From assembly GCF_022846255.1 (NCBI RefSeq), contig NZ_AP025682.1: a stretch of 64,000 nt of DNA; one strand, written 5' to 3'. Shown here piece after piece: positions 13,095-44,229 of this stretch. Each line of letters begins with the position of its first letter. Positions within the stretch are counted from its first letter, which is position 1. The position numbers and the translations under genes are program-made. The notes beneath the pieces were generated by a model, which was not told the origin of the DNA, did not search any database, and saw only the letters and a list, made by a program, of their open reading frames with translations. Origin of the DNA: Escherichia coli (lineage in GTDB: Bacteria > Pseudomonadota > Gammaproteobacteria > Enterobacterales > Enterobacteriaceae).

Positions 13095-14030
13095 ATGGCT
13101 AATCCGCTATATCAGAAACATATCATTTCCATAAACGACCTTAGTCGCGATGACCTTAATCTGGTGCTGGCGACAGCGGCGAAACTGAAAGCAAACCCGC
13201 AACCAGAGCTGTTGAAGCACAAAGTCATTGCCAGCTGTTTCTTCGAAGCCTCTACCCGTACCCGCCTCTCTTTCGAAACTTCCATGCACCGCCTGGGTGC
13301 CAGCGTGGTGGGCTTCTCCGACAGCGCCAATACATCACTGGGTAAAAAAGGCGAAACGCTGGCCGATACCATTTCGGTTATCAGCACTTACGTCGATGCG
13401 ATAGTGATGCGTCATCCGCAAGAAGGTGCGGCGCGCCTGGCCACCGAATTTTCTGGCAATGTACCGGTACTGAATGCCGGTGATGGCTCCAACCAACATC
13501 CGACACAAACCTTGCTGGACTTGTTCACCATTCAGGAAACCCAGGGGCGGCTGGAAAATCTGCACATTGCGATGGTCGGTGACCTCAAATATGGCCGCAC
13601 CGTTCACTCCCTGACTCAGGCGCTAGCGAAGTTCGACGGCAACCGTTTTTACTTCATCGCGCCGGACGCGCTGTCAATGCCGCAATACATTCTGGATATG
13701 CTTGATGAAAAAGGGATCGCCTGGAGTCTGCACAGCTCTATTGAAGAAGTGATGGCGGAAGTAGACATCCTGTATATGACCCGCGTGCAAAAAGAGCGCC
13801 TGGACCCGTCCGAGTACGCCAACGTGAAAGCGCAGTTTGTTCTTCGCGCCAGCGATCTCCACAACGCCAAAGCCAATATGAAAGTGCTGCATCCGCTGCC
13901 GCGTGTTGATGAGATTGCGACGGATGTGGATAAAACGCCTCACGCCTGGTACTTCCAGCAAGCAGGCAACGGGATTTTCGCTCGCCAGGCGTTACTGGCA
14001 CTGGTTCTGAATCGCGATCTGGTACTGTAA
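13095..14030 (+). CDS. pyrB: Aspartate carbamoyltransferase catalytic subunit
   Basis: 311-aa ORF with STRTR and HPLP motifs; AGGAGA RBS. Confidence 0.96.
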
Positions 14031-18243: not shown

Positions 18244-19191
18244 ATGCAAAATCGGCTGACCATCAAAGACATCGCGCGCTTAAGCGGCGTGGGGAAATCT
18301 ACGGTTTCCCGGGTGCTGAATAACGAAAGCGGCGTGAGCCAGCGCACGCGCGAGCGTGTTGAAGCAGTGATGAATCAGCATGGATTTTCCCCTTCCCGCT
18401 CTGCGCGCGCTATGCGTGGGCAAAGCGATAAAGTGGTCGCCATCATTGTTACCCGTCTGGATTCGTTGTCAGAAAATCTCGCCGTTCAAACCATGCTGCC
18501 AGCGTTCTATGAACAAGGTTACGATCCAATCATGATGGAAAGTCAGTTTTCCCCACAATTAGTTGCCGAACATTTGGGGGTGCTGAAACGGCGTAATATC
18601 GACGGCGTAGTGCTGTTCGGTTTTACCGGCATAACAGAAGAAATGTTAGCCCACTGGCAGTCATCGCTGGTTCTGCTGGCGCGTGACGCAAAAGGCTTTG
18701 CTTCGGTCTGTTATGACGACGAAGGGGCAATCAAGATCCTGATGCAACGGCTGTATGACCAGGGACATCGTAATATCAGCTATCTCGGCGTGCCGCACAG
18801 TGACGTGACGACCGGTAAGCGACGTCACGAAGCCTACCTGGCGTTCTGCAAAGCGCATAAACTGCATCCCGTTGCCGCTCTGCCAGGGCTTGCTATGAAG
18901 CAAGGCTATGAGAACGTAGCAAAAGTGATTACGCCTGAAACTACCGCGTTACTGTGCGCAACCGACACGCTGGCACTTGGCGCAAGTAAATACCTGCAAG
19001 AGCAACGCATCGACACCTTGCAACTGGCGAGCGTCGGTAATACACCGTTAATGAAATTCCTCCATCCGGAGATCGTCACCGTAGATCCCGGTTACGCCGA
19101 AGCTGGACGCCAGGCGGCCTGCCAGTTGATCGCGCAGGTCACCGGGCGCAGCGAACCGCAACAAATCATCATCCCCGCCACCCTGTCCTGA
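18244..19191 (+). CDS. treR: Trehalose operon repressor (LacI family)
   Basis: 315-aa ORF with N-terminal LacI HTH (TIKDIARLSGVGKSTVSRVLN). Confidence 0.94.
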   Translation: MQNRLTIKDIARLSGVGKSTVSRVLNNESGVSQRTRERVEAVMNQHGFSPSRSARAMRGQSDKVVAIIVTRLDSLSENLAVQTMLPAFYEQGYDPIMMESQFSPQLVAEHLGVLKRRNIDGVVLFGFTGITEEMLAHWQSSLVLLARDAKGFASVCYDDEGAIKILMQRLYDQGHRNISYLGVPHSDVTTGKRRHEAYLAFCKAHKLHPVAALPGLAMKQGYENVAKVITPETTALLCATDTLALGASKYLQEQRIDTLQLASVGNTPLMKFLHPEIVTVDPGYAEAGRQAACQLIAQVTGRSEPQQIIIPATLS

Positions 19192-20780: not shown

Positions 20781-22436
20781 ATGACTCATCTTCCCCACTG
20801 GTGGCAAAACGGCGTTATCTACCAGATTTATCCAAAGAGTTTTCAGGACACCACGGGTAGCGGCACCGGCGATTTACGTGGCGTTATCCAACGCCTGGAC
20901 TATCTGCATAAACTGGGCGTTGATGCCATCTGGCTAACCCCCTTTTATGTCTCTCCCCAGGTCGATAACGGTTACGACGTAGCGAATTATACGGCGATTG
21001 ATCCCACCTATGGCACGCTGGACGATTTTGACGAACTGGTGACACAGGCAAAATCGCGTGGGATTCGTATCATTCTCGATATGGTGTTTAACCATACCTC
21101 TACCCAACATGCCTGGTTTCGCGAGGCGCTGAACAAAGAAAGCCCTTACCGCCAGTTTTATATCTGGCGCGATGGAGAACCAGAAACGCCACCGAACAAC
21201 TGGCGTTCAAAATTCGGTGGTAGTGCGTGGCGCTGGCATGCAGAAAGCGAACAGTACTATTTGCATCTCTTTGCACCAGAACAGGCGGATCTCAACTGGG
21301 AGAATCCAGCGGTACGCGCAGAGCTGAAAAAAGTCTGTGAGTTCTGGGCCGATCGTGGGGTCGACGGGTTGCGCCTGGATGTGGTGAATCTGATCTCCAA
21401 AGATCCGCGTTACCCTGAAGACCTGGATGGCGACGGGCGTCGCTTCTATACCGACGGGCCACGAGCACACGAGTTTTTGCACGAGATGAACCGCGATGTG
21501 TTTACGCCACGCGGGTTAATGACCGTAGGTGAAATGTCCTCCACCAGCCTTGAGCATTGCCAGCGATACGCGGCACTGACAGGCAGTGAATTGTCGATGA
21601 CCTTTAATTTTCATCACCTGAAGGTCGATTATCCCGGAGGTGAAAAATGGACGCTGGCTAAACCTGACTTTGTGGCGTTGAAAACATTGTTCCGCCACTG
21701 GCAACAAGGAATGCACAACGTGGCATGGAATGCCTTGTTCTGGTGTAACCACGATCAGCCGCGCATTGTTTCTCGCTTTGGTGATGAAGGTGAATACCGC
21801 GTGCCTGCGGCAAAAATGCTGGCGATGGTGCTGCATGGCATGCAGGGAACGCCGTATATCTACCAGGGCGAAGAGATTGGCATGACCAACCCACATTTCA
21901 CGCGCATTACTGACTATCGCGACGTGGAGAGCCTCAATATGTTTGCCGAGCTGCGCAACGATGGGCGTGATGCCGACGAGTTATTGGCAATCCTCGCCAG
22001 TAAATCCCGTGACAACAGTCGCACACCCATGCAATGGACCAACGGCGATAATGCCGGGTTTACGGCTGGCGAACCGTGGATTGGCCTGGGCGATAACTAT
22101 CAGGAAATCAACGTAGAAGCAGCGCTGGCCGATGAGTCCTCGGTGTTTTACACCTACCAAAAGTTAATCGCACTGCGTAAGCAAGAAGCCGTCCTGACAT
22201 GGGGCGATTACCAGGATCTGCTGCCAAACAGCCCTGTATTGTGGTGCTATCGCCGTGAGTGGAAGGGGCAAACCTTGCTGGTCATTGCCAACCTTAGCCG
22301 TGAGACCCAACCCTGGCAGCCAGGGAAAATGCTCGGCAACTGGCAGCTTGTGATGCATAACTACGAAGAAGCCTCACCACAACCCTGTACCATGACTTTA
22401 CGGCCTTTTGAGGCTGTCTGGTGGTTACAGAAGTAA
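20781..22436 (+). CDS. treC: Trehalose-6-phosphate hydrolase (GH13)
   Basis: 551 aa from ATG at 20781 (MTHLPHWWQNGVIYQIYPKSF); track ORF starts 49 codons upstream. Confidence 0.93.
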   Translation: MTHLPHWWQNGVIYQIYPKSFQDTTGSGTGDLRGVIQRLDYLHKLGVDAIWLTPFYVSPQVDNGYDVANYTAIDPTYGTLDDFDELVTQAKSRGIRIILDMVFNHTSTQHAWFREALNKESPYRQFYIWRDGEPETPPNNWRSKFGGSAWRWHAESEQYYLHLFAPEQADLNWENPAVRAELKKVCEFWADRGVDGLRLDVVNLISKDPRYPEDLDGDGRRFYTDGPRAHEFLHEMNRDVFTPRGLMTVGEMSSTSLEHCQRYAALTGSELSMTFNFHHLKVDYPGGEKWTLAKPDFVALKTLFRHWQQGMHNVAWNALFWCNHDQPRIVSRFGDEGEYRVPAAKMLAMVLHGMQGTPYIYQGEEIGMTNPHFTRITDYRDVESLNMFAELRNDGRDADELLAILASKSRDNSRTPMQWTNGDNAGFTAGEPWIGLGDNYQEINVEAALADESSVFYTYQKLIALRKQEAVLTWGDYQDLLPNSPVLWCYRREWKGQTLLVIANLSRETQPWQPGKMLGNWQLVMHNYEEASPQPCTMTLRPFEAVWWLQK

Positions 22437-22621
22437 ATCTTCGCTAAGCCCCGGTAATGCCTGTCATTCCGGGGTTTTGCCTGTCAGTATGTTGTTTTTG
22501 TTGATTTTATAATCAAAAAATTCATTAAAAAATTTACATATCGCTGTAGCGCCCGTCATCCGTACGCTCTGCTTTTTACTTTGAGCTACATCAAAAAAAG
22601 TTCAAACATCCTTGATGCAAA

Positions 22622-22669
22622 GCACTATATATAGACTTTAAAATGCGTCCCAACCCAATATGTTGTATT
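22622..22669. promoter_or_regulatory. Two NrdR-box-like palindromes upstream of nrdD
   Basis: gcACTATATATAGact and cCCAATATGTTGTatt, centres 32 bp apart; TATAAT hexamer just downstream. Confidence 0.5.
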
Positions 22670-22829
22670 AATCGACTATAATTGCTACTACAGCTCCCCA
22701 CGAAAAAGGTGCGACGTTGTGGATAAGCGGATGGCGATTGCGGAAAGCACCGGAAAACGAAACGAAAAAACCGGAAAACGCCTTTCCCAATTTCTGTGGA
22801 TAACCTGTTCTTAAAAATATGGAGCGATC

Positions 22830-24968
22830 ATGACACCGCATGTGATGAAACGAGACGGCTGCAAAGTGCCGTTTAAATCAGAGCGCATCAAAGAAGCGAT
22901 TCTGCGTGCAGCTAAAGCAGCGGAAGTCGATGATGCCGATTATTGCGCCACTGTTGCTGCGGTTGTCAGCGAGCAGATGCAGGGCCGCAACCAGGTGGAT
23001 ATCAATGAGATCCAGACCGCAGTTGAAAACCAGCTGATGTCGGGGCCATACAAACAACTGGCTCGTGCTTACATCGAGTACCGTCACGATCGCGACATTG
23101 AACGTGAAAAACGCGGTCGCCTGAACCAGGAGATCCGTGGTCTGGTCGAGCAGACCAACTCCTCGTTACTCAACGAAAACGCCAACAAAGACAGCAAGGT
23201 GATTCCAACCCAGCGCGACCTGCTGGCCGGGATCGTGGCTAAACACTATGCACGCCAGCACCTGCTGCCGCGTGACGTGGTGCAGGCACATGAACGTGGT
23301 GATATTCACTATCACGATCTCGATTACTCACCGTTCTTCCCGATGTTCAACTGCATGTTGATCGACCTGAAAGGCATGCTGACCCAGGGCTTTAAAATGG
23401 GGAACGCCGAGATTGAACCGCCGAAATCGATCTCTACGGCAACCGCGGTAACTGCGCAGATTATTGCTCAGGTCGCCAGCCATATTTATGGCGGCACCAC
23501 CATTAACCGTATCGATGAAGTGCTGGCACCGTTTGTCACCGCCAGCTACAACAAACATCGCAAGACCGCAGAAGAGTGGAACATCCCGGACGCCGAAGGC
23601 TACGCTAACTCTCGTACCATCAAAGAGTGCTACGATGCCTTCCAGTCGCTGGAGTACGAAGTAAACACCCTGCACACCGCCAACGGTCAAACACCGTTTG
23701 TGACCTTTGGTTTTGGTCTGGGCACCAGCTGGGAGTCGCGCCTGATTCAGGAATCTATCCTGCGTAACCGTATCGCCGGCCTCGGTAAAAACCGTAAAAC
23801 GGCGGTGTTCCCGAAACTGGTGTTTGCGATTCGCGATGGCCTGAACCATAAAAAAGGCGATCCGAACTACGACATCAAACAGCTGGCGCTGGAGTGCGCA
23901 AGCAAGCGCATGTATCCGGATATCCTTAACTACGATCAGGTAGTGAAAGTCACCGGTTCGTTTAAAACCCCGATGGGCTGCCGCAGCTTCCTCGGCGTGT
24001 GGGAAAATGAAAACGGCGAGCAGATCCACGATGGTCGTAACAACCTCGGCGTGATCAGCCTGAACCTGCCGCGTATTGCTCTGGAAGCAAAAGGCGATGA
24101 AGCCACCTTCTGGAAGCTGCTGGATGAACGTCTGGTGTTGGCACGTAAGGCGCTGATGACCCGTATCGCTCGTCTCGAAGGCGTGAAAGCGCGCGTAGCC
24201 CCGATCCTCTATATGGAAGGCGCTTGTGGCGTGCGTCTGAATGCTGACGACGACGTTTCTGAAATCTTCAAAAACGGTCGTGCGTCTATTTCGCTGGGTT
24301 ACATCGGCATCCACGAAACCATTAACGCGCTGTTCGGCGGCGAGCATGTTTACGACAACGAGCAGCTGCGCGCGAAAGGTATTGCGATTGTTGAGCGTCT
24401 GCGTCAGGCGGTGGATCAGTGGAAAGAAGAAACTGGCTACGGTTTCAGCCTCTACAGTACACCGAGTGAGAACCTGTGCGACCGCTTCTGCCGTCTCGAT
24501 ACCGCTGAGTTTGGCGTGGTGCCGGGCGTGACCGATAAAGGTTACTACACCAACAGTTTCCACCTCGATGTGGAGAAGAAGGTGAACCCGTACGACAAGA
24601 TCGACTTTGAAGCGCCTTACCCGCCACTGGCGAACGGTGGCTTCATTTGCTATGGCGAGTATCCAAACATTCAGCACAACCTGAAGGCGCTGGAAGATGT
24701 CTGGGATTACAGCTATCAGCATGTACCGTATTACGGCACCAACACACCGATCGATGAATGCTACGAGTGTGGCTTTACCGGCGAATTTGAGTGCACCAGC
24801 AAAGGCTTCACTTGTCCGAAATGTGGTAACCATGACACCTCCCGTGTGTCGGTGACTCGCCGCGTGTGCGGATATTTAGGTAGCCCGGATGCACGTCCGT
24901 TTAACGCTGGTAAGCAGGAAGAAGTTAAGCGCCGCGTTAAACATTTGGGAAATGGGCAGATAGGTTAA
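22830..24968 (+). CDS. nrdD: Anaerobic ribonucleoside-triphosphate reductase
   Basis: 712-aa ORF with C-terminal Zn-finger cysteines and glycyl-radical motif RVCGYLG. Confidence 0.95.
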   Translation: MTPHVMKRDGCKVPFKSERIKEAILRAAKAAEVDDADYCATVAAVVSEQMQGRNQVDINEIQTAVENQLMSGPYKQLARAYIEYRHDRDIEREKRGRLNQEIRGLVEQTNSSLLNENANKDSKVIPTQRDLLAGIVAKHYARQHLLPRDVVQAHERGDIHYHDLDYSPFFPMFNCMLIDLKGMLTQGFKMGNAEIEPPKSISTATAVTAQIIAQVASHIYGGTTINRIDEVLAPFVTASYNKHRKTAEEWNIPDAEGYANSRTIKECYDAFQSLEYEVNTLHTANGQTPFVTFGFGLGTSWESRLIQESILRNRIAGLGKNRKTAVFPKLVFAIRDGLNHKKGDPNYDIKQLALECASKRMYPDILNYDQVVKVTGSFKTPMGCRSFLGVWENENGEQIHDGRNNLGVISLNLPRIALEAKGDEATFWKLLDERLVLARKALMTRIARLEGVKARVAPILYMEGACGVRLNADDDVSEIFKNGRASISLGYIGIHETINALFGGEHVYDNEQLRAKGIAIVERLRQAVDQWKEETGYGFSLYSTPSENLCDRFCRLDTAEFGVVPGVTDKGYYTNSFHLDVEKKVNPYDKIDFEAPYPPLANGGFICYGEYPNIQHNLKALEDVWDYSYQHVPYYGTNTPIDECYECGFTGEFECTSKGFTCPKCGNHDTSRVSVTRRVCGYLGSPDARPFNAGKQEEVKRRVKHLGNGQIG

Positions 24969-25125: not shown

Positions 25126-25590
25126 ATGAACTATCATCAGTACTATCCTGTCGACATCGTCAACGGCCCCGGCACTCGCTGCACCCTGTTTGTCTCCGGG
25201 TGTGTTCATGAATGCCCCGGTTGCTATAACAAAAGCACCTGGCGGGTAAATTCCGGTCAGCCATTTACCAAAGCAATGGAAGACCAGATCATTAACGATC
25301 TGAATGACACTCGCATCAAACGCCAGGGTATTTCCCTCTCCGGCGGCGATCCGCTGCATCCGCAAAACGTGCCGGATATTCTGAAACTGGTACAACGCAT
25401 CCGCGCCGAGTGTCCGGGTAAAGACATCTGGGTGTGGACAGGCTATAAACTCGACGAACTCAACGCTGCGCAAATGCAGGTTGTTGATTTGATTAACGTG
25501 CTGGTCGACGGCAAATTTGTGCAGGATTTAAAAGACCCTTCCCTGATCTGGCGCGGCAGCAGCAATCAGGTGGTGCATCATTTGCGATGA
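25126..25590 (+). CDS. nrdG: Anaerobic RNR activating protein (radical SAM)
   Basis: 154-aa ORF with CVHECPGC radical-SAM cysteine motif. Confidence 0.94.
   Translation: MNYHQYYPVDIVNGPGTRCTLFVSGCVHECPGCYNKSTWRVNSGQPFTKAMEDQIINDLNDTRIKRQGISLSGGDPLHPQNVPDILKLVQRIRAECPGKDIWVWTGYKLDELNAAQMQVVDLINVLVDGKFVQDLKDPSLIWRGSSNQVVHHLR

Positions 25591-38557: not shown

Positions 38558-44229
<5,672 letters not shown>

Follow-up and report, generated by a model that had tools for sequence, protein, structure and literature searches.

Two NrdR Boxes Upstream of nrdDG in Escherichia coli and Their Neighboring FNR and DnaA Sites

Introduction

The NrdR operator of the nrdDG promoter in Escherichia coli is already known, from a prediction of 2005, genetic work of 2007–2010 and biophysical measurements made on the exact sequence in 2025. 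The prediction is reportedly that of Rodionov and Gelfand in 2005, and the operator of E. coli is said to have been studied genetically by Torrents in 2007.

Purified E. coli NrdR binds a 57-bp nrdDG probe with a KD of 160 ± 37 nM in the presence of ATP and dATP (FEBS J, PMC12176259), and with a KD of 152 ± 42 nM in the presence of ADP and dATP (PMC12176259). [quoted passage not shown] Loaded with ATP or ADP together with dATP, NrdR is present as a tetramer, which occupies both boxes and bends the DNA; the higher oligomers formed with ATP alone show no DNA binding (PMC12176259). H-NS and FNR are named as additional regulators of nrdDG in the same study (PMC12176259). An NrdR site is defined by C4, A6, A8, T9, T11, and G13 in the box and by a linker of 15–16 bp, which corresponds to 8 bp between the C and the G of a box and to box centers 31–32 bp apart (bioRxiv 10.64898/2026.05.11.724285). 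In the E. coli nrdEF (nrdHIEF) promoter, a single box is left unbound and two are needed, and it is the length of the linker that matters, not its sequence (bioRxiv 10.64898/2026.05.11.724285).

Several related operators have been described. The nrdHIEF and nrdAB operators of E. coli (box 1 and box 2) likewise consist of two 16-bp boxes with C4, A6, T11, and G13 and a 15-bp linker, box 2 of nrdAB having a central AG, and their KD values of 113–187 nM are similar to that of nrdDG (PMC12176259). The partner regulators differ, being Fur and IscR for nrdHIEF, DnaA and H-NS for nrdAB, and FNR for nrdDG, and among these three operators only that of nrdDG overlaps the site of an activator (FNR). The orthologous operator of Salmonella Typhimurium nrdDG also has a box 1 that overlaps an FNR site (Panosa et al., 2010, PMC2892513). 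Mutation of either box derepresses a nrdDG-lacZ fusion to about the level of a nrdR deletion or above (PMC2892513). In the Salmonella locus retrieved here, that of S. enterica subsp. arizonae, box 2 is identical to the E. coli box, whereas box 1 departs from its E. coli counterpart at two positions outside the defining six. A more distant case is that of the nrdRJ and nrdAB operators of Streptomyces coelicolor, known from a cryo-EM complex (Rozman Grinberg, 2022), which share the box grammar and the spacing, although S. coelicolor belongs to another phylum and its operators control other RNR classes than that of E. coli nrdDG. In one of the S. coelicolor boxes 9 bp separate the C from the G, and in another the center is AA. 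The NrdR proteins of E. coli and S. coelicolor bind one another's sites (bioRxiv 10.64898/2026.05.11.724285).

The DNA analyzed here, called the window, is a stretch of 64,000 nt from E. coli that contains treR, nrdD, and nrdG. Its nrdDG operator is without difference from that of E. coli K-12, with which it shares the 57-bp sequence, the flanking genes, and the FNR and DnaA sites; compared with many E. coli strains, the intergenic region around the operator diverges by a few percent.

The nrdDG Locus and the Register of Its Boxes

E. coli Nissle 1917 has the 521 bases around the boxes at 100% identity, and essentially all of the 5,425 complete E. coli genomes have them at 95–100%. For the same sequence in Nissle 1917, RefSeq annotates treR-treB-treC, then nrdD-nrdG, and then cybC on the opposite strand. 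The gap between the end of treC at 22436 and the start of nrdD at 22830 measures 393 bp, the length that an earlier note on this DNA had given for the leader/promoter region. A hairpin (CCCCGGTAATG...CATTCCGGGG, then TTTTG; 22449..22479) lies 13 nt past the treC stop codon. This hairpin, which the simple terminator scan missed, probably terminates treBC. The gene of the regulator, nrdR, is carried by 5,424 of the 5,426 complete E. coli genomes and lies outside the 64-kb window.

The earlier note had described two palindromes resembling NrdR boxes, GCACTATATATAGACT at 22622..22637 and CCCAATATGTTGTATT at 22654..22669, with a center spacing of 32 bp, or about three helical turns. Both strings are present at these positions, and the placement of box 1, whose 10-bp core CTATATATAG is a perfect palindrome, stands. 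Box 2, on the other hand, has its true frame one base to the left (Table 1). In the frame first proposed its self-complementarity is limited to 4 of 16 positions, and it ranks about 47,000th to 56,000th among 63,985 positions with the NrdR matrices, whereas in the frame 22653..22668 it contains C4, A6, A8, T9, T11, and G13 and fits the published probe layout of 5+16+15+16+5. The box centers then fall at 22629.5 and 22660.5, so that the spacing is 31 bp with a linker of 15 bp; the value of 32 bp came from the 1-nt error of register, and the statement of about three helical turns holds. All six defining positions are found in both boxes, as CNANATNTNG-N21-CNANATNTNG matches 22625..22665 with 0 mismatches, and the 15 bp of the linker (22638..22652) lie within the defined 15–16 bp.

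The segment 22617..22673 of the window is identical, base for base, to the 57-bp nrdDG probe of Rozman Grinberg 2025 (PMC12176259). Binding of NrdR in vitro, the lack of which the earlier note had named as evidence against its reading, is thus published as positive on the identical sequence (PMC12176259).

Table 1. Coordinates of the features discussed in the text (positions are those of the window).
Feature	Coordinates	Strand	Description
treR	18244..19191		treR/mgtA intergenic region just upstream
Third consensus DnaA box	13925..13933	-	TTATCCACA; inside pyrB, no partner box noted; by coordinate mapping to the Nissle annotation
Inverted repeat	22501..22516	.	TTGATTTTATAATCAA; flagged in the earlier note, present in the window
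FNR site 2	22581..22594	.	TTGAGctacATCAA; center -64.5; main activating site; 1 mismatch to TTGAT-N4-ATCAA; predicted ChIP-seq-peak site
FNR site 1	22612..22625	.	TTGATgcaaAGCAC; center -33.5; 2 mismatches to TTGAT-N4-ATCAA; shares 22622..22625 (4 bp) with box 1
NrdR box 1	22622..22637	.	GCACTATATATAGACT; probe positions 6-21; matrix rank 1
Linker	22638..22652	+	TTAAAATGCGTCCCA; 15 bp, length from the probe layout
-10 hexamer	22639..22644	+	TAAAAT, in the linker; fits the start site inferred at 22652; -35 poor
NrdR box 2	22653..22668	.	ACCCAATATGTTGTAT; probe positions 37-52; matrix rank 2
nrdD 5' leader	22652..22829	+	178 nt if the start is 22652; variable save for the DnaA boxes and a TATAAT-like hexamer
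Distal leader DnaA box	22718..22726	-	consensus TTATCCACA; +67..+75; near-invariant in Enterobacteriaceae
Double DnaA box	22795..22814	-	TTAAGAACA-gg-TTATCCACA; identical to the nrdD DnaA ChIP-seq site tTTAAGAACAggTTATCCACAg; 15 nt before the nrdD ATG
Consensus DnaA box of the double box	22795..22803	-	TTATCCACA
nrdD	22830..24968	+	anaerobic ribonucleoside-triphosphate reductase, the regulated gene; from the ORF list and the RefSeq annotation of the identical Nissle 1917 region
nrdG	25126..25590		downstream of nrdD

Oxygen-Responsive Sites and the Geometry of the Promoter

According to the work of Roca 2008, as described in PMC10425943, the nrdD promoter has two FNR sites, at -64.5 and -33.5 from its start; activation requires the upstream site, which also suffices for it, and the downstream site is weaker, with one canonical triad missing. 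Two FNR-like sites of the window have centers 31 bp apart, as in this published pair, and when the published positions are set on them the nrdD start site should be the A at about 22652. FNR class II promoters typically have their site at -41.5, and activation from -33.5 is unusual. The site predicted under the nrdD FNR ChIP-seq peak, TTGATGTAGCTCAA (Myers, 2013), is the reverse complement of FNR site 2. The two sites are consensus-like and conserved, with a match to the ChIP-seq data and to the published positions. The supplement of the same study also contains a weaker FNR ChIP-seq peak at treR/mgtA, a region that lies inside the window (Myers, 2013).

Relative to the start site placed in this way, box 1 would occupy -30..-15 and box 2 +2..+17, and the linker between them would hold the -10 hexamer and the start site. 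The operator lies 162 bp upstream of the nrdD ATG and overlaps the polymerase site deduced from this start. The first nine bases of the linker, TTA[A/G]AATGC, are kept in Enterobacteriaceae while the remaining linker drifts, and such conservation is expected of a -10 element. The nrdD promoter was not detected by the sigma-70 scan of 22400..22900, an outcome to be expected from its dependence on an activator and its poor -35. The sigma-70/terminator scan of the same interval returned one minus-strand promoter-like match over the boxes (1 vs. 1.2 expected) and a weak terminator-like site.

The base at 22622, which is position 1 of box 1, is G in Escherichia and T in most Enterobacteriaceae, and the position of FNR site 1 reads TTGATGCAAATCAC in most relatives. 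Salmonella has the T and with it the better FNR-1 half-site ATCAC; the G of Escherichia turns the right half-site into AGCAC. Judged from the sequence, the G should weaken FNR site 1 and leave the defining NrdR positions untouched.

Two further elements were observed near the promoter. A perfect TATAAT (22677..22682, about +26..+31) stands just past box 2, and TAYNAT with the preceding ATCG is conserved across Enterobacteriaceae. It could be a second -10 element, in which case FNR site 1 would lie at about -71, or a sigma-70 promoter-proximal pause element. In most Enterobacteriaceae a block AATTTACA...GCGCCCGTCATC...GTAC (22532..22568) is conserved upstream of FNR site 2; neither a function assigned to this block nor a convincing promoter geometry was found.

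Another candidate for oxygen control is the TTGAT/ATCAA pair at 22501..22516, which the earlier note had called everted and had connected with possible FNR control. The pair exists and its 6-bp spacing is non-canonical, as had been said, but its arms stand in the orientation of the FNR consensus, with a spacer of 6 bp in place of 4 bp. An oxygen-responsive site of the FNR/CRP family that controls nrdDG from here would agree with the rarity of the exact TTGAT-N6-ATCAA in the window (2 vs. 0.11 expected) and with the position of the repeat, which lies in moderately conserved, AT-rich DNA at a distance of 151 bp upstream from the inferred start site. However, with the 6-bp spacer the TTGA and TCAA half-sites are two bases farther apart than they should be, and the arms drift even within Escherichia. 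At the right arm, E. albertii reads ATCAG and L003, a divergent record titled E. coli, reads ACCAG; TTGAA stands at the left arm in most genera, where this place reads TTGAA...ATCAG or unrelated sequence. The site predicted under the FNR ChIP-seq peak is 22581..22594, and the published functional sites are those at -64.5 and -33.5 (PMC10425943). The repeat fails as an FNR site by its spacer, the conservation of its half-sites and the location of the ChIP-seq peak, and control of nrdDG through it is highly unlikely, the documented sites being 22581..22594 and 22612..22625. It is located in a T-rich tract just past the treC terminator-like hairpin, outside the NrdR/FNR operator, and is probably without function. 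The window has a second exact TTGAT-N6-ATCAA (TTGATGGTGGCATCAA) at 40704..40719, and the two together slightly exceed expectation.

Conservation Across Enterobacterales

The conservation of the boxes was followed in 80 nrdD loci, one per species, across Enterobacterales, with 450 bp of upstream region searched in each. A box pair with 12/12 defining positions was found upstream of nrdD in 78 of the 80 species, at a center spacing of 31 bp in 69 and of 32 bp in 9. The best score among 240 coding control windows from the same loci was 9/12, and a single one of 400 shuffled upstream regions reached 12/12. Outside the defining positions the loci are diverse, with 38 and 46 distinct boxes and 52 distinct linkers. 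As the defining positions are kept while the other box positions and the linkers vary, the signal reflects a position-specific constraint and not general similarity.

Among 5,422 E. coli genomes, 4,565 have the 57-bp site at 100% identity. In the two variants inspected, the changes fall in the linker or the flank only and none in box 2: the O157:H7 variant is changed at 22669, and that of strain N50 at two linker positions and three positions in the flank after box 2.

These patterns bear on the proposal that the boxes are mainly the target of another AT-preferring protein, for example H-NS, to which NrdR binding would be secondary. The operator region is indeed AT-rich, and H-NS is reported as a regulator of nrdDG (PMC12176259). 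Nevertheless, the retention of C4, A6, A8, T9, T11, and G13 with the other positions free is unlike what a loosely specific AT-binder would leave, the box pattern is the same as that of the NrdR boxes of unrelated RNR operons, and box mutations phenocopy the deletion of nrdR in Salmonella (PMC2892513). We consider a primary role of such a protein at the boxes extremely improbable.

The Box Pair Compared with Chance

The single core CNANATNTNG matches 23 times in the window against 17.3 expected, and a single box core is by itself uninformative. The paired core at an offset of 31 bp, with 0 mismatches over the 12 defining positions, is found once (22625..22665) against 0.01 expected. When up to two mismatches are admitted, the count is 3 against 2.8 expected, which is the level of chance. 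The only other near-match of the window, a 1-mismatch pair at 1618..1658, lies inside valS and was rejected as a chance match.

Two matrices were used, both with the nrdDG site left out. Matrix 1 was built from the four E. coli nrdAB and nrdHIEF boxes of the published probes, and matrix 2 from 48 boxes upstream of nrdD in non-Enterobacteriaceae Enterobacterales. With both matrices, 22622 ranks first and 22653 second of 63,985 positions, and the pair scores 28.8, where 50 shuffles of the window reach at most 13.0. In the position-weight-matrix scan for NrdR that the earlier note had put forward as a check, both boxes, with box 2 re-registered, thus stand at the top of the window. A third half-box at about 22685 (CTACTACAGC), hinted at by the small matrix, lacks G13 and scores weakly, and it was not retained.

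That the palindromes are chance AT-rich sequence or plain promoter elements, such as a TATA-like -10, without a dedicated repressor has a negligible probability: the commonness of the single core (23 vs. 17 expected), the TATATA/TATAGA strings in box 1 and the minus-strand promoter-like match, itself at chance frequency, speak for it, but the fixed-spacing pair occurs only once in the window, is kept in 78/80 species while neighboring bases drift, and is the exact sequence bound by purified NrdR (PMC12176259).

The segment 22622..22668 is almost certainly the NrdR operator of the E. coli nrdDG promoter, with a matrix score above background, conservation upstream of orthologous RNR genes, and nrdR present in nearly all complete E. 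coli genomes. The interpretation given in the earlier note is supported by independent matrices and by the published binding.

DnaA Boxes in the nrdD Leader

The leader was searched for RNA structures and for protein sites. An Rfam search of 22400..22900 with a permissive E-value gave no match, only two sub-threshold chance results. Folding of the 199 nt that comprise the leader and the start region was no more stable than that of shuffles (z = -0.77), and a riboswitch or attenuator is therefore unsupported.

Consensus DnaA boxes number 3 in the window against 0.30 expected, two of them in the leader (Table 1). Both leader DnaA sites are near-invariant in 54 Enterobacteriaceae, and the leader around them is highly variable. 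The double DnaA box has been reported under the nrdD DnaA ChIP-seq peak (PMC11317965), and the deletion of DARS2 raises the level of NrdD protein (PMC12371093). Furthermore, in Yersinia, Serratia, Pectobacterium, and relatives, which are Enterobacterales outside Enterobacteriaceae, two DnaA boxes were found in 19 of 25 loci; the first box in these loci is inverted and adjoins NrdR box 2.

The sequence CCGGAAAACG is directly repeated in the leader, at 22750..22759 and 22771..22780. The repeat is found in E. coli and E. albertii and is absent from other genera, and it is probably a lineage-specific feature without conserved function.

Discussion

The positions of the sites suggest how the nrdDG promoter may be switched. 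When dATP is abundant, the ATP-cone domains of NrdR load ATP (or ADP) together with dATP, and the protein forms a tetramer. Its two pairs of zinc-ribbon domains then each occupy one box, and the DNA is bent. As the boxes bracket the -10 hexamer and the start site, bound NrdR should exclude RNA polymerase, and as box 1 and FNR site 1 have 4 bp in common, NrdR should likewise be a competitor of the auxiliary FNR dimer. Both the occlusion of polymerase and the competition at FNR site 1 are inferred from positions; a competition between NrdR and FNR has been raised for Salmonella by Panosa et al. (PMC2892513). With ATP alone, NrdR is off the DNA, and under anoxia FNR bound at -64.5, helped by that at -33.5, can activate nrdDG. 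The operon is therefore on only if oxygen is absent, with FNR active, and dATP is not in excess, with NrdR released.

The sequence-only reading of this DNA had found a true operator, and the present check corrects the register of box 2 and the FNR sites. The check also yields a map of the promoter in window coordinates, from FNR site 2 and FNR site 1 through box 1, the -10 hexamer, the start site, and box 2 to the DnaA boxes.

DnaA occupancy at nrdD has been published, and regulation has already been suggested; its mechanism is putative, and the conservation of the DnaA boxes across the order, with a flipped first box outside Enterobacteriaceae, is an observation of the present analysis. Tentatively, and at less than even confidence, we propose that the nrdDG region may be a conserved unit with three inputs, in which NrdR would respond to dATP/ATP, FNR to oxygen, and DnaA bound in the leader would act as a roadblock or repressor. 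If true, such three-input control would tie anaerobic dNTP synthesis to the status of replication initiation.
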